Shown piece by piece: positions 12,324 through 64,000 of a stretch of 64,000 nucleotides of DNA; within the stretch, counting starts at the first letter, position 1, and the number at the start of each line of letters is the position of its first letter. The stretch is from NCBI RefSeq assembly GCF_000027125.1, contig NC_017626.1; one strand, given 5' to 3'. The translations under genes and the position numbers were made by a program. The notes beneath the pieces are model-generated. The model worked only from the letters and a program-made list of their open reading frames with translations, did no database searches and was not told the origin of the DNA. Source of the DNA: Escherichia coli 042 (GTDB lineage Bacteria > Pseudomonadota > Gammaproteobacteria > Enterobacterales > Enterobacteriaceae).

Positions 12324-13181
12324 CTAATTGGGTGATGACAAATCCTGTGTATGGGTGTTTCCCTTTGTGCGTGCGTTGATGCTGGTAACGGTGAACGTCA
12401 TGATGAACACAACCGCGAATAAGACGACAATCGTCGGAGCTGGTGCACTGTCGATAAAAAAGGACAACCAGACACCAGTCATTGACACTATTACCGATAT
12501 GCCAATCGCCAGTAGGAGCGCAATATGAAAGCGTTGTGTCAGGAGTACCGCAATGGCGCCAGGCGCAATGAGCAGAGAAATGGAGAGAATGATACCTACC
12601 GCTTTCAGCGTCGCCACAATGGTCAGAGAGACCATGCACAGCAGCCCATAATGCAGACATCTCGTATGCAAACCGCTTACCTGCGCCTGTTGATAATCAA
12701 AGCTGAACAGCAAAAAATCCCGCCATTTTACGCTAATAACAAGTGTAACCAACCCGGCAATAATCACCGTCTGGATTATATCGCCGATGGTTACCCCGAG
12801 CATGTCGCCGAAAAGAATATGGTCAAGATGTACGTCTGGTTTGACTGCAATATACAAGATCAGACCTGCGGCAAACATGCCAGAAAAAACAATCCCCATC
12901 ACTGTATCTTGCTTGATTCGGCTGTTGTCTTTCAGGTATCCCGTCGCCACCGCGCAGAATACTCCGGCGACGAATGCCCCTGTAGCCAGAGGTAACCCCA
13001 GAATCCAGGCAAGCACGATGCCAGGAAAAACCGCATGACTCATCGCGTCACCCATCAGTGCCCAACCTTTCAGGACCAGAAAGACCGACAGCAGCGCACA
13101 GGGTATGGAAACTACCAGTGAAATCAGCAGTGCGTGACTCATAAAGGTGAACTGCAGTGGCTCCAGTAATAATGCCATCAT
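12324..13181 (-). CDS. sitD: Mn/Fe ABC transporter permease SitD
   Basis: 285 aa polytopic membrane protein; second of two paralogous permeases; 4-nt overlap with sitC. Confidence 0.85.
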   Translation of the reverse strand: MMALLLEPLQFTFMSHALLISLVVSIPCALLSVFLVLKGWALMGDAMSHAVFPGIVLAWILGLPLATGAFVAGVFCAVATGYLKDNSRIKQDTVMGIVFSGMFAAGLILYIAVKPDVHLDHILFGDMLGVTIGDIIQTVIIAGLVTLVISVKWRDFLLFSFDYQQAQVSGLHTRCLHYGLLCMVSLTIVATLKAVGIILSISLLIAPGAIAVLLTQRFHIALLLAIGISVIVSMTGVWLSFFIDSAPAPTIVVLFAVVFIMTFTVTSINARTKGNTHTQDLSSPN

Positions 13182-14035
13182 GAGCGATCCTCCAGCGCTT
13201 TATGCGCACGCCGACGATTTGCCAAAAGCCCATGGGTGGGCGCAAATACAAATGCTAAAAGAAACAGCAGTGTCTGCGCCACCACGATGATTCCACCTGT
13301 CGCGCCGTCCAGAAAGTAACTGACCCACGCGCCGAGGAAACTGGTTACACTGCCAATAGTTACAGCAATTATGAGCAGGCGGGGAAAATGATCGGTTAAC
13401 AACCATGCTGTTGCACCGGGAGTCACCACCAGACAGATCACCAGAAAGGCACCAACCGTTTGCAGCGCCGCAACGGTCGAAACCGACAGCAGGGTGAAGA
13501 AGAGGATTTTTAATCTGCCCGGATGCAATCCAATAGCACGAGCGTGATTCTCGTCGAAAAAGGTCACCATAAGATCTTTCCATTTGAAAAAAAGCACGAT
13601 GATCGAGAGAATGCCAATGATAGTGAGTTGCAGGATATCCGCCGGATCGATTGCCAGAATATTGCCCAGGACGATGGTCTGAATGTTCACGGATGTCGGG
13701 TTCAATGACACCATAAACAGCCCCAGGCCAAAAAAGGAGGAGAAGATCAGGCCGATGATGGCATCTTCTTTTAAGCGAGTGCGTTGGTTAAGAAACAGCA
13801 TGCTGCCCGCTGCCAGTCCGCCGGAAAAGAAGGCTCCCAGAGAAAACGGAAGCCCCAGCATATATGCCCCCGCAACACCCGGGACAATAGAGTGCGACAG
13901 CGCATCGCCAATCAGCGACCAGCCTTTTAGCATCAGATAGCATGACAGGAAAGCGCAGAGACCGCCGACCATCGCCGAGACCCACATCGCATTGAGCATA
14001 TATTCATAGCTGAAGGGTTCCAGTAGCACGTTCAT
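13178..14035 (-). CDS. sitC: Mn/Fe ABC transporter permease SitC
   Basis: 285 aa, ABC-3 type permease; overlaps sitB and sitD ends. Confidence 0.85.
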
Positions 14036-14859
14036 CTTGCTTCCCCCTGCACCGCTGACGGTCGATGTGCCACAAAAGGGTGTTCATCGTCAGTAATAAT
14101 GCTTTCTTCCGAGCCGTTAAGTGTGACATGGCGCAGTACGCCGCTAAAAGCCAGCTCCAGGTTCTCGGCTGTAAAAGTGGTGTCTGTCGGCCCGCTTGCC
14201 AGGACGGTGCCTTTGACCATGACCGTATAATCGCAAAATGTCGTGACTGAGCCGAGATTGTGCGTTGAGACAAGCATCGTCTTGCCTTCCGCGCGTAACT
14301 CCCTCAACAGGCTGATGATTTTCGCTTCGGTTTTCACATCAACGCCGGTAAAAGGTTCATCCAGCAGGATCACATCACCCTGCTGTGCAATCGCTCTCGC
14401 CAGAAAGACGCGTTTCTTTTGTCCACCGGAAAGCTCGCCGATTTGTCGATGGCGAAAATCCACCATATCGACACGTTCCAGCGCATCGGTGACAATCTGA
14501 CGATCCCTCTTTTTGGCTATACGCAACATACCCATGTGCCCATAGCGGCCCATCATCACCACATCTTCCACTAGTACAGGAAATGACCAGTCAACCTCTT
14601 CTGACTGAGGGACGTAGGCAACCAGGTTTTTCTGTAGCGCCTGTCGCGTGGGAATACCCAGAACAGATATCTTTCCGCTGGTCAGACGGACAAATCCCAT
14701 AATCGCTTTAAACAACGTCGATTTTCCGGAACCGTTTACCCCAACCAGAGCGGCAATAGATCCACTTGGTACTGTGAAGGATGCATCGCGCAGTGCTGTG
14801 TGCCCGTTACGCCAGGTGACAGTAACATCATTAACGACAATGCCCGCAGATTGCATCAT
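14032..14859 (-). CDS. sitB: Mn/Fe ABC transporter ATP-binding protein SitB
   Basis: 275 aa; Walker [13 protein letters not shown] signature LSGGQKKR, Walker B ILLDEP. Confidence 0.9.
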
Positions 14860-15773
14860 TATTTCTCCCTTTTCCCGGCTTTAATTCCCTGTACCAGCGT
14901 ACTGGTAGTAACCTTCAGAAGGTCGATATACGTAGGTACCGGGCCGTTTTCTGTGCTCAGGGAATCGACATAGAGTACACCGCCGTAGTGCGCGCCGGTT
15001 TCACGCGCAACCTGACGCGCTGGTTTATCGGAAATCGTACTCTCGCTAAAGACTGCCGGGATATGATTTTTCTTCACCATATCAACAACCTTACGTACCT
15101 GCTGCGGCGTGCCTTGTTGATCGGCATTAATCGGCCACAGATAAAGCTCTTTTAGCCCCAAATCGCGTGCGAGATAAGAAAAAGCCCCTTCACTGGTGAC
15201 CATCCATCGCTGATTCTCAGGGAGTTCAGCAATCTGCTTACGCAGGGGGGCAAGGGTTTGGGTAATCTTGGCTTTATAAGTATCGGCATTACGTTGGTAG
15301 GTTTGTGCATTTGCCGGATCGTATTTTATCAACGCATCACGAATATTATCGACATAAATCAGAGCATTATCTGGCGACATCCAGGCATGGGGGTTAGGTT
15401 TGCCCTCATAGGGTCCTTCGGTGATCCCTACTGGCGTCACACCCGAAGAGACAATTACTTCTGGAACCCCATTGAGATGTTGGTAAAAGCGTTGGAACCA
15501 CAATTCCAGATTCATACCATTGGCGAGAATCAGTTGTGCCCCCTGCGCACGTTTAATATCTCCAGGGGTAGGCTGATACTCATGAATTTCTGCACCAGGC
15601 TTGGTTATGGATGAGACTTCTGCAGCATCTCCAGCCACGTTTTTGGCCATATCCGCGATGATGGTAAATGTTGTAATGACCTTGAATTTTTCAGTTGCAC
15701 TTGCCTGAAATGCGATCGAGCAGGTGAGGGCGAGGCACCCCAAGAGCATGGTTACTTTTTTTATTGAGTGCAT
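14859..15773 (-). CDS. sitA: periplasmic Mn/Fe-binding protein SitA (cluster 9 / TroA-like)
   Basis: 304 aa with signal peptide; first gene of a four-gene co-directional operon. Confidence 0.85.
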
Positions 15774-27049: not shown

Positions 27050-27379
27050 ATGATGAAGAAAACATTACTTCTTTGTGCGTTTCTTGTTGGGCTGGTAAGC
27101 AGCAATGTAATGGCATTGACTCTGGATGAAGCCAGAACTCAGGGGCGGGTAGGGGAAACATTTTATGGTTATCTGGTTGCGCTGAAAACAGATGCTGAAA
27201 CAGAGAAATTAGTAAACGACATTAATGCCGAACGTAAAGCGAGTTACCAACAACTGGCAAAGCAAAATAATGTCTCGGTAGATGATATCGCGAAACTCGC
27301 CGGGCAAAAGCTCGTAGCTCGGGCTAAACCGGGGGAATATGTACAAGGGATAAACGGTAAATGGGTGCGAAAATTTTAA
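27050..27379 (+). CDS. ydbL: periplasmic protein YdbL (DUF1318)
   Basis: 109 aa from MMKKTLLLCAF signal peptide; longest frame from 26972. Confidence 0.65.
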   Translation: MMKKTLLLCAFLVGLVSSNVMALTLDEARTQGRVGETFYGYLVALKTDAETEKLVNDINAERKASYQQLAKQNNVSVDDIAKLAGQKLVARAKPGEYVQGINGKWVRKF

Positions 27380-27550
27380 TAGCAAAACCGCAATATCGGG
27401 ATAACGCTACAGGAGAAGGCGATTATTCTATTTTCCGGAAACAAGGTGAATATTCAAAAATTCCTGTCAAATTGCCTTTCGCCCTGAAAAATGCATAGTC
27501 AAATATCTGTTTTAACTAATTCGCGTTGCTGTACATGCAACGCGAATTAG

Positions 27551-27784
27551 TTAGCGGAATTTACGTCGATACTCGCCTGGCGTCATCCCAAAGCGTTGAT
27601 TAAATACCGTTGAAAAATGACTCTGGTCGGAAAATCCCCAATGAAAGCCAATGCCTGCCAGTTTTTCATCATCTGCGGCATGGCGAATCGCATCTGCACA
27701 AAAATCGAGACGACGGTTACGGATATATTGCGCGACTACCAAACCTTTATCGGCAAACTTTATCAGCGCGTAGCGCCTGCTGCT
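27551..27784 (-). pseudogene. feaR: 3' remnant of an AraC-family regulator gene (feaR-like): only the C-terminal HTH region (~78 codons) remains
   Basis: Frame encodes ...IGFHWGFSDQSHFSTVFNQRFGMTPGEYRRKFR (AraC-type HTH) but is closed by a stop at 27785-27787 with no N-terminal domain; convergent with ydbL as feaR is in K-12. Confidence 0.55.
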
Positions 27785-27787
27785 TTA

Positions 27788-27910
27788 GCGTTCGTTAGTG
27801 AAAAAGGTGAAACCTCGGTCGGTGAACTGCCTGCGCCGGGAAGCCTGTATTTTCAACGTTTTGGCGGCTTGAATATTGAACAGGACGCGTTATGCCAATT
27901 TATCAGATAG
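27788..27910 (+). pseudogene. possible 3' remnant of paaX, overlapping the paaY start
   Basis: Open frame ending 27910 with no plausible start or N-terminal portion; position upstream of paaY matches K-12 paaX-paaY. I do not recall the PaaX C-terminus, so assignment is by position only. Confidence 0.3.
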
Positions 27911-32853: not shown

Positions 32854-32862
32854 TGTTTTTCA
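32854..32862. repeat. IS1 target-site duplication, left copy (TGTTTTTCA)
   Basis: Identical 9-mer directly flanks both IS1 ends. Confidence 0.9.
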
Positions 32863-32877
32863 GGTAATGACTCCAAC

Positions 32878-33255
32878 TTATTGATAGTGTTTTATGTTCA
32901 GATAATGCCCGATGACTTTGTCATGCAGCTCCACCGATTTTGAGAACGACAGCGACTTCCGTCCCAGCCGTGCCAGGTGCTGCCTCAGATTCAGGTTATG
33001 CCGCTCAATTCGCTGCGTATATCGCTTGCTGATTACGTGCAGCTTTCCCTTCAGGCGGGATTCATACAGCGGCCAGCCATCCGTCATCCATATCACCACG
33101 TCAAAGGGTGACAGCAGGCTCATAAGACGCCCCAGCGTCGCCATCGTGCGTTCACCGAATACGTGCGCAACAACCGTCTTCCGGAGACTGTCATACGCGT
33201 AAAACAGCCAGCGCTGGCGCGATTTAGCCCCGACATAGCCCCACTGTTCGTCCAT
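32878..33255 (-). CDS. insB: IS1 InsB (made as the InsAB' transposase by -1 frameshift)
   Basis: 125 aa from first Met; matches recalled IS1 InsB (...[18 protein letters not shown]). Confidence 0.85.
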
Positions 33256-33299
33256 TTCCGCGCAGACGATGACGTCACTGCCCGGCTGTATGCGCGAGG

Positions 33300-33575
33300 T
33301 TACCGACTGCGGCCTGAGTTTTTTAAGTGACGTAAAATCGTGTTGAGGCCAACGCCCATAATGCGGGCAGTTGCCCGGCAGCCAACGCCATTCATGGCCA
33401 TATCAATGATTTTCTGGTGCGTACCGGGTTGAGAAGCGGTGTAAGTGAACTGCAGTTGCCATGTTTTACGGCAGTGAGAGCAGAGATAGCGCTGATGTCC
33501 GGCGGTGCTTTTGCCGTTACGCACCACTCCGTCAGTAGCTGAACAGGAGGGACAGCTGATAGAAACAGAAGCCAC
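33300..33575 (-). CDS. insA: IS1 InsA (transposition inhibitor / N-terminal part of transposase)
   Basis: 91 aa [23 protein letters not shown]... zinc-finger/HTH protein typical of IS1. Confidence 0.9.
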
Positions 33576-33630
33576 TGGAGCACCTCAAAAACACCATCAT
33601 ACACTAAATCAGTAAGTTGGCAGCATCACC

Positions 33631-33639
33631 TGTTTTTCA
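33631..33639. repeat. IS1 target-site duplication, right copy (TGTTTTTCA)
   Basis: Identical to 32854-32862. Confidence 0.9.
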
Positions 33640-37518: not shown

Positions 37519-38133
<615 letters not shown>

Positions 38134-38324
38134 TTATAGATGTTTGAATGGGCGATGCCCCGTTGCTTGTTGACACTTTATTCACAATCCTGCCACAGAG
38201 ATAGCGCAATAAATCGAAGCCTATGTTCGAATTTATTGAACAACGCATAGAAAGCCGCGATGTGGTACTCTATATCTATCATTTAAAAGAAAATTAATCA
38301 GGCAGCCTACTGCCCACTAACGTT

Positions 38325-41300
38325 ATGACAGAACAACAAAAATTGACCTTTACGGCCTTGCAGCAGCGGCTGGATTCGCTGATGCTGCGCGACAGACAGC
38401 GTTTTTCTCGCCGTCTGCACGGCGTGAAGAAGGTTAAAAATCCTGATGCACAACAGGCCATTTTCCAGGAGATGGCGAAAGAGATTGACCATGCGGCAGG
38501 GAAAGTCCTGCTGCGTGAAGCGGCACGACCGGAAATCACTTATCCGGACAATTTGCCGGTTAGTCAGAAAAAGCAGGACATTCTCGAAGCAATTCGTGAT
38601 CACCAGGTAGTGATCGTCGCCGGGGAAACGGGTTCCGGTAAAACGACTCAGCTACCGAAAATCTGTATGGAGCTGGGCCGCGGGATTAAAGGGCTGATCG
38701 GCCATACCCAGCCGCGTCGTCTGGCGGCGCGAACGGTGGCGAACCGTATTGCGGAAGAGCTGAAAACGGAGCCGGGCGGTTGCATCGGTTACAAAGTGCG
38801 TTTCAGCGATCACGTAAGTGATAACACGATGGTCAAGCTGATGACCGACGGTATCCTGCTGGCGGAGATCCAGCAAGACCGCCTGCTGATGCAGTACGAC
38901 ACCATCATTATTGACGAAGCGCACGAACGCAGCCTGAATATCGATTTTCTGCTCGGCTATTTGAAAGAGTTGCTGCCGCGGCGTCCTGACCTAAAAATCA
39001 TTATCACTTCCGCGACTATCGACCCGGAACGCTTTTCGCGCCACTTTAATAATGCGCCGATTATCGAAGTCTCCGGTCGGACCTATCCGGTGGAAGTGCG
39101 CTATCGCCCGATTGTTGAAGAAGCCGATGATACCGAGCGCGATCAGTTGCAGGCGATTTTTGACGCTGTAGACGAACTGAGCCAGGAAAGCCCTGGCGAC
39201 ATTCTGATCTTTATGAGTGGTGAGCGGGAAATTCGCGATACCGCCGATGCGCTGAACAAGCTGAACTTACGCCATACCGAAATCTTGCCGCTTTATGCGC
39301 GGCTTTCGAACAGCGAACAGAACCGCGTGTTCCAGTCGCACAGTGGACGGCGCATTGTGCTGGCGACCAACGTCGCGGAAACCTCGCTGACCGTACCGGG
39401 GATTAAATACGTTATCGACCCAGGTACGGCGCGTATCAGCCGCTACAGCTATCGCACTAAAGTGCAGCGTTTGCCGATTGAGCCGATTTCTCAGGCGTCT
39501 GCCAACCAGCGTAAAGGCCGCTGTGGTCGTGTGTCAGAAGGGATCTGTATTCGTCTCTATTCGGAAGATGATTTCCTGTCGCGCCCGGAGTTTACCGATC
39601 CGGAGATTCTGCGTACCAACCTGGCCTCGGTTATTTTACAGATGACCGCGTTGGGGCTGGGTGATATCGCCGCGTTCCCATTTGTCGAAGCGCCGGATAA
39701 ACGTAATATCCAGGATGGCGTGCGTCTGCTCGAAGAGCTGGGCGCGATCACCACTGATGAACAGGCCAGCGCCTATAAACTGACGCCGCTCGGTCGCCAG
39801 CTTTCGCAATTGCCTGTCGATCCTCGTCTGGCGCGTATGGTGCTGGAAGCGCAAAAACATGGCTGCGTGCGTGAGGCGATGATTATCACGTCCGCGCTCT
39901 CCATCCAGGATCCGCGCGAACGACCGATGGACAAACAGCAGGCATCGGACGAAAAACATCGTCGCTTCCACGACAAAGAATCCGACTTCCTCGCGTTTGT
40001 AAATCTGTGGAATTATCTTGGCGAGCAGCAAAAGGCGCTTTCTTCCAACGCCTTCCGTCGCCTGTGTCGTACCGATTATCTCAACTATCTGCGCGTGCGC
40101 GAATGGCAGGATATCTACACCCAGTTGCGCCAGGTAGTAAAAGAACTTGGCATTCCAGTTAACAGCGAACCGGCGGAGTATCGCGAAATTCACATCGCCT
40201 TACTGACCGGTTTGCTTTCCCATATCGGCATGAAAGATGCCGATAAACAAGAATATACCGGCGCACGTAACGCGCGTTTTTCCATCTTTCCCGGTTCTGG
40301 TTTATTCAAAAAGCCGCCGAAATGGGTAATGGTGGCGGAACTGGTAGAAACCAGCCGCCTGTGGGGGCGCATTGCGGCACGCATCGATCCAGAATGGGTG
40401 GAGCCAGTTGCTCAGCATTTAATTAAACGCACCTACAGCGAACCACACTGGGAACGGGCGCAGGGCGCGGTGATGGCAACGGAAAAAGTCACCGTTTACG
40501 GGTTGCCGATTGTTGCCGCGCGTAAGGTCAACTACAGCCAGATCGATCCGGCGTTATGTCGTGAACTCTTTATTCGCCACGCGCTGGTGGAAGGTGACTG
40601 GCAGACACGTCATGCATTCTTCCGTGAAAACCTGAAACTGCGGGCTGAAGTGGAAGAACTGGAACACAAAACACGTCGCCGCGATATTCTGGTGGATGAC
40701 GAAACGCTGTTTGAGTTTTATGACCAGCGCATCAGCCACGATGTGATCTCTGCACGTCACTTCGACAGCTGGTGGAAAAAAGTCAGCCGCGAAACGCCTG
40801 ATTTGCTCAACTTTGAAAAGAGCATGTTGATCAAAGAAGGGGCGGAAAAGATCAGCAAGCTGGATTACCCGAACTTCTGGCATCAGGGCAATCTCAAACT
40901 GCGTTTGAGCTATCAGTTTGAGCCGGGGGCAGATGCTGACGGTGTGACTGTGCATATCCCGCTGCCGTTACTTAACCAGGTTGAGGAGAGCGGGTTTGAG
41001 TGGCAGATCCCCGGTCTGCGCCGCGAACTGGTGATTGCTCTGATTAAATCGTTGCCGAAACCAGTACGCCGTAATTTTGTGCCCGCGCCAAACTACGCCG
41101 AAGCTTTTTTAGGCCGCGTCACACCGCTGGAATTGCCGTTGCTCGACAGCCTTGAACGAGAGCTGCGGCGGATGACTGGCGTCACCGTTGACCGCGAAGA
41201 CTGGCACTGGGATCAGGTGCCCGATCACCTGAAAATCACCTTCCGCGTGGTGGATGACAAAAACAAGAAGCTAAAAGAAGGGCGCTCATTACAGGATCTG

Positions 41301-42227
41301 AAAGATGCTCTGAAAGGCAAAGTGCAGGAAACGCTGTCTGCGGTGGCGGATGACGGTATCGAGCAGAGCGGCTTACATATCTGGAGTTTTGGGCAACTGC
41401 CGGAAAGCTACGAACAGAAGCGTGGCAACTACAAAGTGAAGGCGTGGCCAGCGTTGGTGGATGAGCGCGACAGCGTGGCGATCAAACTGTTTGATAACCC
41501 GCTGGAACAAAAGCAGGCAATGTGGAACGGTCTTCGCCGTTTACTGCTGCTGAATATTCCGTCGCCAATCAAATATTTGCATGAGAAGTTGCCAAACAAA
41601 GCCAAACTTGGGCTGTACTTTAACCCGTATGGCAAAGTGCTGGAGCTGATAGACGACTGTATCTCCTGCGGTGTGGATCAACTGATCGACGCCAATGGTG
41701 GCCCGGTCTGGACGGAAGAAGGCTTTGCTGCGCTGCATGAAAAAGTCCGCGCTGAACTGAACGACACGGTGGTGGATATTGCGAAGCAGGTCGAGCAAAT
41801 CCTTACGGCAGTGTTCAATATCAACAAACGCCTGAAAGGGCGGGTGGATATGACCATGGCGCTGGGGCTTTCTGACATTAAAGCGCAGATGGGCGGGCTG
41901 GTGTATCGCGGTTTTGTCACTGGCAACGGTTTTAAACGGCTGGGCGACACGCTGCGTTATTTGCAGGCGATTGAAAAACGACTGGAAAAACTGGCGGTTG
42001 ATCCGCATCGCGACCGTGCTCAGATGCTGAAAGTCGAAAATGTCCAGCAGGCGTGGCAGCAGTGGATCAACAAACTGCCGCCTGCACGTCGTGAGGATGA
42101 AGACGTGAAAGAGATCCGTTGGATGATAGAAGAGTTGCGCGTCAGCTACTTCGCTCAACAACTTGGTACGCCTTATCCGATTTCGGATAAGCGTATTTTG
42201 CAGGCGATGGAGCAGATTAGCGGTTAA
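38325..42227 (+). CDS. hrpA: ATP-dependent RNA helicase HrpA (DEAH-box)
   Basis: 1300 aa; Walker A GETGSGKTTQ, DEAH box IIIDEAHERS. Confidence 0.9.
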   Translation: MTEQQKLTFTALQQRLDSLMLRDRQRFSRRLHGVKKVKNPDAQQAIFQEMAKEIDHAAGKVLLREAARPEITYPDNLPVSQKKQDILEAIRDHQVVIVAGETGSGKTTQLPKICMELGRGIKGLIGHTQPRRLAARTVANRIAEELKTEPGGCIGYKVRFSDHVSDNTMVKLMTDGILLAEIQQDRLLMQYDTIIIDEAHERSLNIDFLLGYLKELLPRRPDLKIIITSATIDPERFSRHFNNAPIIEVSGRTYPVEVRYRPIVEEADDTERDQLQAIFDAVDELSQESPGDILIFMSGEREIRDTADALNKLNLRHTEILPLYARLSNSEQNRVFQSHSGRRIVLATNVAETSLTVPGIKYVIDPGTARISRYSYRTKVQRLPIEPISQASANQRKGRCGRVSEGICIRLYSEDDFLSRPEFTDPEILRTNLASVILQMTALGLGDIAAFPFVEAPDKRNIQDGVRLLEELGAITTDEQASAYKLTPLGRQLSQLPVDPRLARMVLEAQKHGCVREAMIITSALSIQDPRERPMDKQQASDEKHRRFHDKESDFLAFVNLWNYLGEQQKALSSNAFRRLCRTDYLNYLRVREWQDIYTQLRQVVKELGIPVNSEPAEYREIHIALLTGLLSHIGMKDADKQEYTGARNARFSIFPGSGLFKKPPKWVMVAELVETSRLWGRIAARIDPEWVEPVAQHLIKRTYSEPHWERAQGAVMATEKVTVYGLPIVAARKVNYSQIDPALCRELFIRHALVEGDWQTRHAFFRENLKLRAEVEELEHKTRRRDILVDDETLFEFYDQRISHDVISARHFDSWWKKVSRETPDLLNFEKSMLIKEGAEKISKLDYPNFWHQGNLKLRLSYQFEPGADADGVTVHIPLPLLNQVEESGFEWQIPGLRRELVIALIKSLPKPVRRNFVPAPNYAEAFLGRVTPLELPLLDSLERELRRMTGVTVDREDWHWDQVPDHLKITFRVVDDKNKKLKEGRSLQDLKDALKGKVQETLSAVADDGIEQSGLHIWSFGQLPESYEQKRGNYKVKAWPALVDERDSVAIKLFDNPLEQKQAMWNGLRRLLLLNIPSPIKYLHEKLPNKAKLGLYFNPYGKVLELIDDCISCGVDQLIDANGGPVWTEEGFAALHEKVRAELNDTVVDIAKQVEQILTAVFNINKRLKGRVDMTMALGLSDIKAQMGGLVYRGFVTGNGFKRLGDTLRYLQAIEKRLEKLAVDPHRDRAQMLKVENVQQAWQQWINKLPPARREDEDVKEIRWMIEELRVSYFAQQLGTPYPISDKRILQAMEQISG

Positions 42228-42253
42228 CCCTGCTATTTGCCTGATAAATCTCA

Positions 42254-42286
42254 AACCCGGTAAGCATTTAGCGCCGGGTTTTTTCT
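42254..42286 (+). terminator. rho-independent terminator after hrpA
   Basis: AACCCGG...CCGGGTT hairpin followed by TTTTTTCTTT. Confidence 0.5.
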
Positions 42287-42372
42287 TTATGAATTCTGAA
42301 AAATAGCAAGGGCGGTACTATTTTACATAAGTTACATTCATACTCTGCCCATGGTAAACAGGACGTATTGCA

Positions 42373-42507
42373 ATGAGTAGGCATGATATTTTAATGAGAT
42401 CGTATTATGAGCGAATAATAGAGCTTGATTGCGTCGGTCAGGCTTTAATCTCTTTCTATGAAAAACTTCCAGAGGAAATTTTATCAGAAAATAATGGATT
42501 GGATTAA
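42373..42507 (+). CDS. possible small ORF (44 aa) at the start of the AT-rich insertion
   Basis: ATG-initiated frame MSRHDILMRSYYERIIELD...; weak SD; overlaps the longest reading of the next ORF in another frame, so at most one reading is real. Confidence 0.2.
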   Translation: MSRHDILMRSYYERIIELDCVGQALISFYEKLPEEILSENNGLD

Positions 42508-42511
42508 TAGT

Positions 42512-42850
42512 ATGAAAAATGTAGACAATATTATCTGGCATGATGGTGTTTTAGTTGAAACAAGAATGGAATGTCACCACGCCGGGTATAATTTTATATT
42601 GACGACAGAACTTTATGTTGATGAATTTACAGCCGGAAGGGAACGAAAAAGATTCGAGTTTACAGGAGTGGAACATTTATCGCAGGTTATGGATATTGCT
42701 GAGCTTATAGATAACCAAAACGCAGGTAATATTAAAGATGCGACAATTGTTTATAAGGCAAAGAAGTATGAAATTTCACTTCATTTGTTTGGCGGTTTTT
42801 TAAGTTTTACATTTAAAACCATGCGAGTTGTTGACAATGAATTTGAGTAA
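42512..42850 (+). CDS. hypothetical protein (112 aa; 130 aa if started at 42458), AT-rich insertion ORF 1
   Basis: Same-strand ORF in visibly AT-rich DNA; no recognisable motif; contains ECHHAGY. Confidence 0.4.
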   Translation: MKNVDNIIWHDGVLVETRMECHHAGYNFILTTELYVDEFTAGRERKRFEFTGVEHLSQVMDIAELIDNQNAGNIKDATIVYKAKKYEISLHLFGGFLSFTFKTMRVVDNEFE

Positions 42851-43286
42851 TGCCAAATGCGACAAATTGTCTTTTTATGAAGAAAAAATCCGCTGGCGAA
42901 TGCGTCGGCAAATCTCGAATGCAGAGGCAATATTTTACGAGAATCAGGAAGAACACATTCAGCGCTTTTTAGGCAGATATACCTGTCGCAAACCGGTTCT
43001 TGTTTATTGGGAAAGTGAACAAAGATGGACATCTGTAAACGGTCTGGAAGTGATGAGTATGTTTGATGGGCATTGTCATCACATCTACCTTGATGATATC
43101 AATAAAAAAATACAAGCTGAATTACCTGAAGATAAAACATTAGGTTTCAAACGTCAATTGCAATTTTTCAGTTTAGGGGATGAGAAGATTAGAATATGGG
43201 TGCCACAGGGGGAATTATATTTCGCATTAATGAATGTATTGCAGATGTTCCCCCTGAAGAAAATGGTTAATGACTGGACAAGGTAA
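42837..43286 (+). CDS. hypothetical protein (149 aa), AT-rich insertion ORF 2
   Basis: ATG overlaps the 3' end of the previous ORF by 14 nt; contains HCHHIYL; no recognisable domain. Confidence 0.4.
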   Translation: MNLSNAKCDKLSFYEEKIRWRMRRQISNAEAIFYENQEEHIQRFLGRYTCRKPVLVYWESEQRWTSVNGLEVMSMFDGHCHHIYLDDINKKIQAELPEDKTLGFKRQLQFFSLGDEKIRIWVPQGELYFALMNVLQMFPLKKMVNDWTR

Positions 43287-43404
43287 TTTCAAATCACAGT
43301 AATGTCCATCGATTATACATGGTACGTAAACAGACTCGCACCGTTTTTGCAGAAGGTTAATGTGTGTCTATTGAGTGCAGTCTCATATATGAAGGGGTAT
43401 TGAC

Positions 43405-43782
43405 ATGGATGAATGTTTTATAAATATCACTCCGACTTCATTGTCTTTTAAAAACGCCGATCTGTCAGATTTAAGCTATAAAAATGCCAGGCTTGAACTT
43501 ACCCTGATATGCCCGGCGATCAAGTCAGAAGTTAAGTTATCATTTGACTGGATACATTCATTTCGTGTTACTGACGAAGGTGATTTGTTAGGAATGTCAG
43601 GAATGCACGGTATTAACCAAACAGGTATCTATAGAGTAGTGAATTCCGCCTATTTTTCATGGTTTACTATGCAAAGTTGTGAAATTTATAAAAATAATGT
43701 GATCGAGCATTATGTCATTGCCACGTCAAATGATGTTATTGATGTTTTATCAACAGTTTCTCCGCAAATACAGTATGACTAA
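43405..43782 (+). CDS. hypothetical protein (125 aa), AT-rich insertion ORF 3
   Basis: SD-like AAGGGG 8 nt upstream of ATG; no recognisable domain. Confidence 0.45.
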   Translation: MDECFINITPTSLSFKNADLSDLSYKNARLELTLICPAIKSEVKLSFDWIHSFRVTDEGDLLGMSGMHGINQTGIYRVVNSAYFSWFTMQSCEIYKNNVIEHYVIATSNDVIDVLSTVSPQIQYD

Positions 43783-43897
43783 AACCAGTGTCTGGTTCGC
43801 GATGGCGAGGTAGAAAAAGCATCATCTTCCTTTCAGAGTGCTCCGCTTCTCATTATTATCTCACGCAGTATTCTTAAGGAAACGATAAGGAGGAACC

Positions 43898-44698
43898 ATG
43901 AACATTACCCCGTTTCCGACGCTTTCGCCGGCAACCATAGATGCCATAAATGTTATCGGTCAGTGGCTGGCGTAGGATGATTTCTCCGGTGAGATGCCGT
44001 ATCAGGCCGATTGCGTGATCCTTGCAGGCAATGCGGTTATGCCAACTATCGATGCGGCATGCAAGATTGCCCGCGATCAGCAAATTCCTCTACTGATTAG
44101 TGGTGGTATCGGTCACTCGACAACTTTTTTGTATAGTGCCATCGCACAGCATCCGCACTACAACACTATCCGCACCACTGGCAGAGCAGAAGCTACCATC
44201 CTGGCGGATATCGCTCATCAGTACTGGCACATTCCGCATGAAAAAATCTGGATTGAAGACCAGTCAACAAACTGCGGTGAAAACGCACGCTTTAGCATCT
44301 CGCTATTGAATCAGGCCGTAGAACGAGTTCATACGGCTATCGTTGTTCAGGACCCCACAATGCAGCGGCGCACGATGGCGACGTTCCGCCGTATGACTGG
44401 GGACAATCCCGATGCACCACGCTGGTTAAGTTATCCCGGATTCGTTCCTCAGCTAGGAAACAACGCAGACAGTGTAATCTTTGTTAATCCGTTGCAAGGA
44501 TTATGGCCGGTTGAGCGTTATCTCTCACTACTCACTGGCGAGCTGCCACGTTTACGCGATGATAGCGATGGCTACGGTCCACGCGGGCGAGATTTTATCG
44601 TTCACGTTGATTTTCCGGCAGAAGTCATCCAGGCATGGCAAACGCTGAAACACGATGCGGTGCTCATCGAGGCGATGGAAAGTCGCTCGTTACGTTAA
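43898..44698 (+). pseudogene. ydcF: ydcF (DUF218 family) carrying an in-frame amber stop at codon 26
   Basis: ATG with AAGGAGG SD at 43898; TAG at 43973-43975 after ...GQWLA; frame continues ...[18 protein letters not shown]... to 44698 (266 codons total). The track ORF restarts at 43994. Confidence 0.7.
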
Positions 44699-44894
44699 AA
44701 ATTGCCCGTTTGTTAACCATTTGTTTGCAAACGGGCATGACTCCTGACGTTTATTTCTGCCTTTTATTCCTTTTACACTTGTTTTTATGAAGCCCTTCAC
44801 AGAATTGTCCTTTCACGATGCCGTCTCTATGATGATTGATGTTAATTAACAATGCATTTACCAATAACAAACATATAAATCACAGGAGTCGCCC

Positions 44895-46334
44895 ATGTCA
44901 GTACCCGTTCAACATCCTATGTATATCGATGGACAGTTTGTTACCTGGCGTGGAGACGCATGGATTGATGTGGTAAACCCTGCTACAGAGGCGGTCATTT
45001 CCCGCATTCCCGATGGTCAGGCCGAGGATGCCCGTAAGGCAATCGATGCAGCAGAACGTGCACAACCAGAATGGGAAGCGTTGCCTGCCATTGAACGCGC
45101 CAGTTGGTTGCGCAAAATCTCCGCCGGGATCCGAGAACGCGCCAGTGAAATCAGTGCGCTGATTGTTGAAGAAGGGGGCAAGATCCAGCAGCTGGCTGAA
45201 GTCGAAGTGGCTTTTACTGCGGACTATATCGATTACATGGCGGAGTGGGCACGGCGTTATGAAGGCGAGATTATTCAAAGCGATCGTCCAGGAGAAAATA
45301 TTCTTCTGTTTAAACGTGCGCTTGGCGTGACTACCGGCATTCTGCCGTGGAACTTCCCGTTCTTCCTCATTGCCCGCAAAATGGCTCCCGCTCTTTTGAC
45401 CGGTAATACCATCGTCATTAAACCCAGTGAATTTACGCCAAACAATGCGATTGCTTTTGCCAAAATTGTCGATGAAATAGGCCTTCCACGCGGTGTGTTT
45501 AACCTTGTGCTAGGGCGTGGTGAAACCGTTGGGCAAGAACTGGCGGGTAACCCAAAGGTCGCAATGGTCAGTATGACAGGCAGCGTCTCTGCAGGTGAAA
45601 AGATCATGGCGACTGCAGCAAAAAATATCACAAAAGTGTGTCTGGAATTGGGTGGTAAAGCACCAGCTATCGTAATGGACGATGCCGATCTTGAACTGGC
45701 AGTCAAAGCCATCGTTGATTCACGCGTCATTAATAGTGGGCAAGTGTGTAACTGTGCAGAACGTGTTTATGTACAGAAAGGCATTTATGATCAGTTCGTC
45801 AATCGGCTGGGTGAAGCGATGCAGGCGGTGCAATTTGGTAACCCCGCTGAACGCAACGACATTGCGATGGGGCCGTTGATTAACGCCTCGGCGCTGGAAA
45901 GGGTCGAGCAAAAAGTGGCGCGCGCAGTAGAAGAGGGGGCGAGAGTGGCGTTGGGGGGCAAGGCAGTAGAGGGGAAAGGATATTATTATCCGCCGACATT
46001 GCTGCTGGATGTTCGCCAGGAAATGTCGATTATGCACGAGGAAACCTTTGGCCCGGTGCTGCCAGTGGTCGCATTTGACACGCTGGAAGAGGCTATCGCA
46101 ATGGCTAATGACAGTGATTACGGCCTGACCTCATCAATCTATACCCAAAATTTGAACGTCGCGATGAAAGCCATTAAAGGGCTGAAGTTTGGTGAAACTT
46201 ACATTAACCGTGAAAACTTCGAAGCTATGCAAGGCTTCCACGCCGGATGGCGTAAATCCGGTATTGGCGGCGCAGATGGTAAACATGGCTTGCATGAATA
46301 CCTGCAGACCCAGGTGGTTTATTTACAGTCGTAA
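44895..46334 (+). CDS. aldA: lactaldehyde dehydrogenase (NAD-dependent aldehyde dehydrogenase)
   Basis: 479 aa ALDH family; catalytic Cys region; K-12 synteny. Confidence 0.9.
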   Translation: MSVPVQHPMYIDGQFVTWRGDAWIDVVNPATEAVISRIPDGQAEDARKAIDAAERAQPEWEALPAIERASWLRKISAGIRERASEISALIVEEGGKIQQLAEVEVAFTADYIDYMAEWARRYEGEIIQSDRPGENILLFKRALGVTTGILPWNFPFFLIARKMAPALLTGNTIVIKPSEFTPNNAIAFAKIVDEIGLPRGVFNLVLGRGETVGQELAGNPKVAMVSMTGSVSAGEKIMATAAKNITKVCLELGGKAPAIVMDDADLELAVKAIVDSRVINSGQVCNCAERVYVQKGIYDQFVNRLGEAMQAVQFGNPAERNDIAMGPLINASALERVEQKVARAVEEGARVALGGKAVEGKGYYYPPTLLLDVRQEMSIMHEETFGPVLPVVAFDTLEEAIAMANDSDYGLTSSIYTQNLNVAMKAIKGLKFGETYINRENFEAMQGFHAGWRKSGIGGADGKHGLHEYLQTQVVYLQS

Positions 46335-46375
46335 TGAGTGAAAGAGGCGGAGGTTTTTCCCTCCGCCTTTGCGCG

Positions 46376-47377
46376 TCAGAGTTTAGCGAATTTTTCGAGG
46401 GTGCGAATAAGCTGCGTGACGAAGCCATATTCGTTATCGTACCAGGCGACCGTTTTCACCAGTTGTAAATCGCCCACGGCGGTAATTTCCGTTTGCGTGG
46501 CATCAAACACCGACCCGAAATGGCTGCCAATGATATCAGAAGAGACTATTTCTTCATCGGTATAACCAAATGACTCGTTATTGTTTGTCGCCTTTTTAAG
46601 CGCGTTGTTCACCTCTTCGGCAGTCACTTTTTTTCCAAGAATAGACACCAGTTCAGTCACCGAACCTGTTTTCACGGGTACGCGTTGCGCATGACCTTTC
46701 AGTTTGCCGCTCAGTTCCGGGATCACCAGACCAATGGCTTTTGCCGCACCTGTAGTGTGGGGAATGATATTTTCTGCCGCTGCACGTGAAGCGCGTAGAT
46801 CTTTACCTCGCGGACCATCCACCAGTGACTGAGTGCCGGTATAGGCATGAATGGTCGTCATCGTGCCGACTTCTATTCCGAAACTGTCGTGCAAGGCTTT
46901 GGCCATCGGTGCAAGACAGTTAGTGGTGCATGACGCCACGGAAACAATGGTGTCGTTGCCATCCAGTGTGTCGTCATTGACGTTATAAACGATGGTTTTC
47001 ATTTCACCGGCAGGGGCGGAAATCAACACTTTCTTCGCACCAGCATCAAGATGCGCCTGCGATTTCTCGGCGGAGGTATAAAAGCCAGTACATTCGACAA
47101 TGATTTCTGCGCCTTTCGCTTTCCATGGAATATTTTTAGCCTCTTTTTCGGCGTAAACCGCGATACTTTTTCCATCAACGATAAGTGAATCTTCCGTAAA
47201 ATCAACGCGCCAGGGGAACGGACCATAGTTTGAATCATGTTTCAGCAGATAGGCGAGAATTTTTGGGGAAGTGAGATCATTAATAGCAACAATGTCTATG
47301 TTGCTTTTGACTTCAAGTAATCGACGCAACACCAGTCGACCGATACGACCAAAACCGTTAATACCAACTTTACTCAT
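46376..47377 (-). CDS. gapC: glyceraldehyde-3-phosphate dehydrogenase C, intact
   Basis: 333 aa uninterrupted ORF; N-terminal [13 protein letters not shown]-binding motif; catalytic SCTTNC. Confidence 0.85.
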
Positions 47378-47565
47378 GGTCTTCTCCTGTCAGGAACGTT
47401 CGGATGAAAATTGATCCTTTCCAGGCTTAGACCAGGATGGCGGGATGGGCAATCTACATTCTTGCCGTGAAACGTAACGTACTGAAAACGGGTGAACAAT
47501 ATTTAATGAAATTTTAAGAAAAGCTCGTTATGTTAACGGAAAATTGTTTTAAAGCAGGAAATGTT

Positions 47566-48096
47566 ATGGAAAATAAATACTCAAGGTTACAAATCAGCAT
47601 TCACTGGCTGGTCTTTTTGCTGGTTATCGCAGCGTATTGCGCAATGGAGTTTCGTGGTTTCTTCCCACGTAGCGATCGGCCGCTCATCAACATGATTCAT
47701 GTTTCCTGTGGCATCACAATTCTCGTGCTGATGGTGATTCGTCTTTTGTTAAGGCTGAAATACCCAACCCCGCCGATTATACCTAAGCCAAAACCGATGA
47801 TGACGGGACTGGCGCATTTGGGACATTTGGTGATCTATCTCCTGTTTATTGCGCTGCCAGTGATTGGTTTGGTGATGATGTATAACCGGGGCAACCCGTG
47901 GTTTGCGTTTGGTATGACGATGCCTTATGCATCAGAGGCCAATTTCGAACGGGTTGATAGCTTAAAGTCGTGGCATGAAACGCTGGCAAATCTGGGATAC
48001 TTTGTCATCGGGTTGCACGCTGCGGCTGCACTGGCACACCACTATTTCTGGAAGGACAACACACTTCTACGCATGATGCCGCGTAAACGTTCCTGA
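47566..48096 (+). CDS. cybB: cytochrome b561
   Basis: 176 aa from MENKYSRLQISIHW; four TM helices with conserved His; AGGAA SD. Confidence 0.85.
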   Translation: MENKYSRLQISIHWLVFLLVIAAYCAMEFRGFFPRSDRPLINMIHVSCGITILVLMVIRLLLRLKYPTPPIIPKPKPMMTGLAHLGHLVIYLLFIALPVIGLVMMYNRGNPWFAFGMTMPYASEANFERVDSLKSWHETLANLGYFVIGLHAAAALAHHYFWKDNTLLRMMPRKRS

Positions 48097-48106
48097 AGGA
48101 TATTTA

Positions 48107-48170
48107 AAGAAAACGCCTGTACTAAAACCGACCCGTGGTACAGGCGAAGAATACGGGTCTACATCGGAAG
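48107..48170 (-). ncRNA. rydC: RydC small RNA
   Basis: Minus-strand sequence CTTCCGATGTAGACCCGTATTCTTCGCCTGTACCACGGGTCGGTTTTAGTACAGGCGTTTTCTT matches the recalled RydC; immediately downstream of cybB. Confidence 0.7.
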
Positions 48171-48340
48171 CGCCTATTATATTTATTTGTGTGACAAATA
48201 AAACCATAATCCTGGTCCATACGTCCATCTGGCTTATCTTTAATCAATTCACCCGATCTTTGATCTCATCAACGGTATCAAAATAAACCAGCGTATAACG
48301 TTCAAATCGAACATAAGATTCGATAAACCATGGAGGTTAT

Positions 48341-63660: not shown

Positions 63661-63729
63661 AACGCCAGTTTTCTGGTTACTCACAACTTATCAAATCTGC
63701 ATGATATTGTTGGCCGGGTAAGGCGTTAC

Positions 63730-64000
<271 letters not shown>

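Follow-up and report, generated by a model that had tools for sequence, protein, structure and literature searches.

The question raised by this locus is whether ydcF of Escherichia coli strain 042 still encodes its protein, with an amber codon in frame shortly after its start, and, if the gene is broken, what broke it and how long ago. The stretch of DNA analysed here (the window) is 64,000 nucleotides long, and all positions are given in its numbering. The evidence described below makes it very probable that ydcF is a very young nonsense pseudogene, produced by one C>T change at position 43973 in one sub-lineage of the enteroaggregative (EAEC) O44:H18 strain 042 clone.

The ydcF pseudogene is located at positions 43898–44698 on the plus strand and has 266 codon positions, with the in-frame amber at codon 26 and a terminal TAA. 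The native Shine-Dalgarno sequence, AAGGAGG (43887–43893, plus strand), lies 4 nt 5′ of the ATG at 43898, and its duplex with the 16S 3′ tail has an energy of −12.2 kcal/mol. Codons 1–25 read MNITPFPTLSPATIDAINVIGQWLA and are followed by the TAG at 43973–43975. This residual N-terminal frame (43898–43975, plus strand) covers most of a conserved helix (residues 11–25, see below). Beyond the TAG the frame is open as far as the TAA at 44696–44698. A frame of about 266 codons is thus present, interrupted by the TAG at codon 26, and the longest uninterrupted ORF is a 234-residue one at 43994–44698, for which the ATG at 43994 is codon 33. The preliminary description had named the same Shine-Dalgarno sequence and the total of 266 codons and had placed the ATG at 43898, the TAG and the internal ATG at these same positions, and all of this is correct on re-reading the sequence.

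The identity of the gene is clear from its domain and its neighbors. The 234-residue ORF matches the Pfam family DUF218 (PF02698) with 54.6 bits and E=1.4e-14, against a gathering cut-off of 27.6 bits, and a search of NCBIfam finds no model matching YdcF. The gene order hrpA, ydcF, aldA, a gap and cybB is conserved, as is appropriate for the ydcF orthologue. Of the four DUF218 proteins in E. coli, YdcF alone is cytoplasmic. It is reported to bind S-adenosyl-L-methionine (SAM), and its physiological role is described as unknown.

The preliminary description had allowed that the native start could be the ATG at 43994, downstream of the amber, instead of the one at 43898. The protein in PDB entry 3CA8 (Protein ydcF) has 266 residues and begins MNITPF. 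In an alignment of 13 YdcF orthologues from nine named genera (including Escherichia, Citrobacter, Salmonella, Leclercia, Kosakonia, Enterobacter, Trabulsiella and Lelliottia), there is no variation at F6, L9, A16, N18, G21, W23, L24 or A25 and almost none at Q26. At position 33 the orthologues have M, V, A, Q, T or P. The AlphaFold2 model of YdcF, with a mean pLDDT of 86, has a confident helix at residues 11–25, and the amber interrupts conserved coding sequence directly after this predicted helix. A native start at 43994 is rejected by the length of 3CA8, the conservation of residues 1–26 across the Enterobacteriaceae and the variability of residue 33, and for these same reasons the upstream ATG at 43898 is the true start of ydcF.

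A single base accounts for the lesion. Among 5,426 complete E. coli genomes, a megablast search with positions 43800–44760 finds ydcF in 5,414. At 99.9% identity, E. coli GF60 is the best match, and the gene is annotated there as an intact 266-residue DUF218 protein, YdcF. Over the 961 bp of this region the window and GF60 differ at one position, 43973, which is T in the window and C in GF60, and the interrupted frame is therefore no product of chance. The alignment has C at this position in GF43 and N3 as well. The causal change is therefore a C>T transition on the plus strand at 43973, converting CAG (Gln26) to TAG, and this guess of the preliminary description is borne out by the alignments to GF60 and to the draft assembly SRR8240396 (see below). 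Over a longer interval, 38120–48325, the only differences from GF60 are at 42986, where the encoded protein is unchanged, and at 43973. In a tblastn comparison, the conceptual ydcF product has 99.6% identity to the intact 266-residue protein of GF60, with one stop in the alignment. The other 240 codons encode the same residues as in GF60, and there is no further damage. A Dcm deamination hotspot at 43973 was considered and rejected, as the sequence context, GGCGCAGG, does not contain CCWGG.

The amber allele is rare. A 33-mer over codon 26, placed so as to avoid neighboring polymorphisms, was compared with the 5,426 complete genomes. Its CAG form is matched in 5,297 of them, exactly in 5,291, and its TAG form in none. 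A lone base that differs from near-identical genomes could be a sequencing or assembly error in a strain that truly carries CAG, a concern also raised in the preliminary description. However, the exact 234-residue ORF product is found on 22 NCBI contigs from separate assemblies, under the name 'YdcF family protein [Escherichia coli]'. Two of the 22 contigs, read at the nucleotide level, show 100% identity to the window with the TAG included, over 20,705 bp (GCA_013073995.1) and over 11,714 bp (GCA_026221415.1). Since independently assembled contigs carry the same TAG allele, an artefact is excluded as a general explanation, and an error at 43973 is extremely improbable.

The direction and age of the change are apparent from the sister genomes. 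The draft assembly SRR8240396 and the window agree throughout 20,801 bp but for base 43973, at which the draft has C (codon CAG). The O44:H18 strain PARC450 (LECL01; LECL00000000, PMC4563881) has C at 43973 and differs from the window at one other base over 20.8 kb. LR134246 has C at 43973 and the same second substitution as PARC450, together with seven single-base indels. Hence the ancestral CAG is found in the closest relatives, which have between zero and one other substitution each over 20.8 kb. WP_054623665.1, the intact protein belonging to this allele type, outnumbers the 234-residue product (103 contigs versus 22), and in a second search it was found in 166 index blocks. Because near-identical sisters keep CAG and the remaining codons of ydcF are undamaged, the amber is, as judged from these alignments, a derived and very recent mutation within one sub-lineage of one clone.

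The similarity to GF60 has a limit on one side. From hrpA onward (38120–63729), there are two differences in the first 10.2 kb, and three mismatches and two gap openings in the next 15.4 kb. To the 5′ side of 38120, GF60 is 1–6% divergent from the window. This change points to a likely recombination boundary close to where hrpA begins.

The consequences of the amber can be predicted from the reading frame. Ribosomes initiating at the native ATG at 43898 would stop after 25 residues, and the full-length 266-residue cytoplasmic DUF218 SAM-binding protein would no longer be made. At most, re-initiation at the ATG at 43994 could give, at a low level, a product without residues 1–32 and hence without the conserved N-terminal helix; such a protein would probably be non-functional. 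We infer that YdcF function has been lost in this strain. The preliminary description had reached the same reading of ydcF as a pseudogene, and it is supported by the interruption of a conserved coding region and by the intact state of the gene in the closest relatives.

There are two ways in which the gene might nevertheless be alive. A truncated protein (residues 33–266) may be made from the ATG at 43994 (Met33), a reasonable caveat of the preliminary description, and the gene would still be working if this product were functional. The ATG lies 18 nt 3′ of the amber, and a Shine-Dalgarno-like element, GGTGA (43988–43992, plus strand), ends 1 nt 5′ of it, at near-optimal spacing. The predicted duplex of this element (GGUGA in the message) with the extended anti-Shine-Dalgarno region of the 16S 3′ tail has an energy of −8.2 kcal/mol, compared to −12.2 kcal/mol for the native site. 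The possible restart product (43994–44698, plus strand, 234 residues) keeps the DUF218 domain, and restarts after early nonsense codons are known in bacteria, for example those of lacI. On the other hand, the 32 missing residues include the predicted helix at 11–25 and eight invariant positions, which argues that they are needed, and Met is not conserved at residue 33. Moreover, an ATG at 43977, only 1 nt past the amber, opens an out-of-frame ORF of 13 codons (43977–44018, plus strand), and this nearer start could capture the terminating ribosomes before they re-initiate at 43994. A functional restart product is thus unlikely.

Alternatively, readthrough of the amber, whether naturally high or due to a suppressor tRNA, could restore the wild-type, full-length YdcF if glutamine were inserted. 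A glutamine-inserting suppressor of the supE type corrects exactly the change from CAG to TAG, and the remainder of the ORF is undamaged. The undamaged ORF is equally well explained by the youth of the mutation, however, and there is no sign of a suppressor, with no tRNA genes found in the 64-kb window. The chance that readthrough keeps the gene alive appears to be very small indeed.

The amber is not expected to have a polar effect on aldA, the next gene, since in K-12 this gene has a promoter of its own. A promoter scan places a promoter-like site 5′ of aldA at 44805–44833. Another such site, TTCAGA-16-TATTAT (43832–43859, plus strand), lies 5′ of ydcF and is a consensus match only. It falls inside the 73 bp that are all that the window and K-12-like genomes have in common directly 5′ of the ydcF ATG. 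A scan for promoters and terminators around ydcF finds sites no more numerous than in shuffled sequence.

The region 5′ of these 73 bp is occupied by a cassette of about 1.5 kb in the gap between hrpA and ydcF (about 42302–43824, plus strand), delimited by comparison with K-12-like genomes, which have about 128 bp at this gap. The inserted cassette of the preliminary description is real in this comparison. It has a low GC content (37%) and contains three ORFs on the plus strand, of 112 residues (42512–42850), 149 residues (42837–43286) and 125 residues (43405–43782). The three ORFs have nothing significant in Pfam and no match in NCBIfam or PADLOC. At the same site, GF43 and N3 have another cassette, with an SMI1/KNR4 gene and a hypothetical gene on the opposite strand, and the site between hrpA and ydcF is, by these comparisons, a variable hotspot. 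A link between the cassette and the amber was considered and rejected. The same cassette is found together with an intact ydcF in GF60 and in about seven to eight further loci, and the two are unrelated for this reason.

The preliminary description had also seen in this lesion a gene decay typical of Shigella-like genomes. Within the window this is not borne out. Fifty-five reference genes, taken from GF60 and KK19-02, were compared against the window, and only two of them are disrupted, ydcF by the amber and ynbB by an IS1 element. There are two IS elements in the 64 kb. The Shigella connection does have some basis outside the window, as Shigella drafts break inside ydcF (see below). The IS1 element is located at 32863–33630, after about codon 50 of ynbB, and is flanked by a 9-bp target duplication, TGTTTTTCA (total span 32854–33639). 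The ynbB gene is intact in GF60.

The other IS element belongs to the IS3 family and is similar to IS1397. It begins near 63684, just 3′ of rlhA. In GF60 the next gene after rlhA is yncJ, of which no homologue was detected in the window. Both elements coincide with contig ends: the draft contigs of about 30 kb of this lineage that were read (for example, WEQW01000034.1) begin at the IS1 in ynbB, and WEQW01000034.1 ends near 63684–64000. In addition, the interval between ydbL and paaY (27377–27891) has only remnants of a gene for an HTH regulator and of paaX, according to the collinear annotation of KK19-02. Missing are the remaining paa genes of the operon and any other content between ydbL and paaY, and KK19-02 is in the same state. 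From the K-12 gene order, we take the missing stretch to be the fea/tynA/paa cluster.

The number of pseudogenes in the whole genome of EAEC strain 042 has been reported as 110 among 4,810 chromosomal CDS (Chaudhuri et al. 2010, PMC2808357), and the ydcF amber is presumably one of these. The gene is not named in the main text of that paper or in the supplementary material searched. The position of the window in the published chromosome can be fixed by the sit genes. In the window, sitDCBA is at 12324–15773 (3,450 bp), and the paper places sitABCD, as cargo of prophage ROD21, at 1580324..1583773 (PMC2808357). The two spans are equal in length and their coordinates are offset by exactly 1,568,000, which very probably puts the window at positions 1,568,001–1,632,000 of the 042 chromosome.

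YdcF is dispensable in E. coli. No phenotype other than that of elyC is reported on deletion of ydcF alone, of three DUF218 genes (sanA ygjQ ydcF) or of all four (PMC3879167; PMC12176290), and the independent knockouts in other assemblies (see below) also speak for dispensability. With a dispensable gene, its loss in the 042 sub-lineage is most simply explained as neutral decay. With at least 22 assemblies carrying it, the amber allele fits neutrality and also selection. In a selective scenario, loss or N-terminal truncation of YdcF would be favored in human-adapted pathotypes, and the amber may have swept a 042-like O44:H18 sub-lineage, in parallel with the apparently independent disruptions of ydcF in three Shigella species (S. 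flexneri, S. sonnei and S. dysenteriae). Alternatively, the 33–266 product from the ATG at 43994 could be a working isoform. We consider these possibilities, taken together, very unlikely. The ydcF amber is a case of ordinary, isolated gene decay.

By itself, another nonsense pseudogene that is specific to a lineage and affects a non-essential gene matters very little. It has, nonetheless, some practical uses. As a marker, the single SNP at 43973 cleanly tells the 042 sub-lineage apart from O44:H18 genomes that are identical in other respects. The locus also calls for caution in annotation, as the 234-residue 'YdcF family protein' reported by gene callers hides the lesion. Moreover, strain 042 is effectively a natural ydcF mutant in any work on the phenotypes of DUF218 proteins.

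The window gene can be compared with the K-12 protein (b1414; PDB entry 3CA8). Both lie between hrpA and aldA and have the same frame of 266 codons. All 266 residues of the restored protein (that of GF60) are aligned with 3CA8, with E=4.5e-181 and seven substitutions visible. The window differs from K-12 ydcF at codon 26, which is TAG instead of CAG, and at codon 33, which is ATG instead of GTG.

There are also other E. coli assemblies in which ydcF has been knocked out early. Six such knockouts were found, namely S10*, Q22*, W23*, Q26* and two frameshifts, and they share with the window an early truncating lesion that leaves a 234-codon ORF call. One of them (GCA_039998235.1) has the identical change from CAG to TAG at codon 26. 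All of these knockouts are on a K-12-like allele (ACT13, GGA21, GTG33), unlike the window, and are therefore independent of its amber. Within codons 1–32, a stop can be reached in one step only at S10, Q22, W23, Q26 and E32, and the nonsense knockouts in the other assemblies cover four of these five codons. Recurrence is expected with so few codons available, and the repeated early stops resemble what mutational sampling would yield in so large a data set and do not point to a hotspot.

The ydcF losses in Shigella are of another type. In the drafts, the gene is cut at contig ends, at codon 92 in S. flexneri (196 index blocks), at codon 205 in S. sonnei (12 contigs) and at codon 14/18 in S. dysenteriae. 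These breaks suggest three independent IS insertions, not point nonsense mutations, and these recurrent losses of ydcF in the drafts could merit a systematic look. There is a further difference in the surroundings of the lesions, as the Shigella losses are found in heavily decayed genomes, whereas few genes are disrupted in the E. coli window described here.
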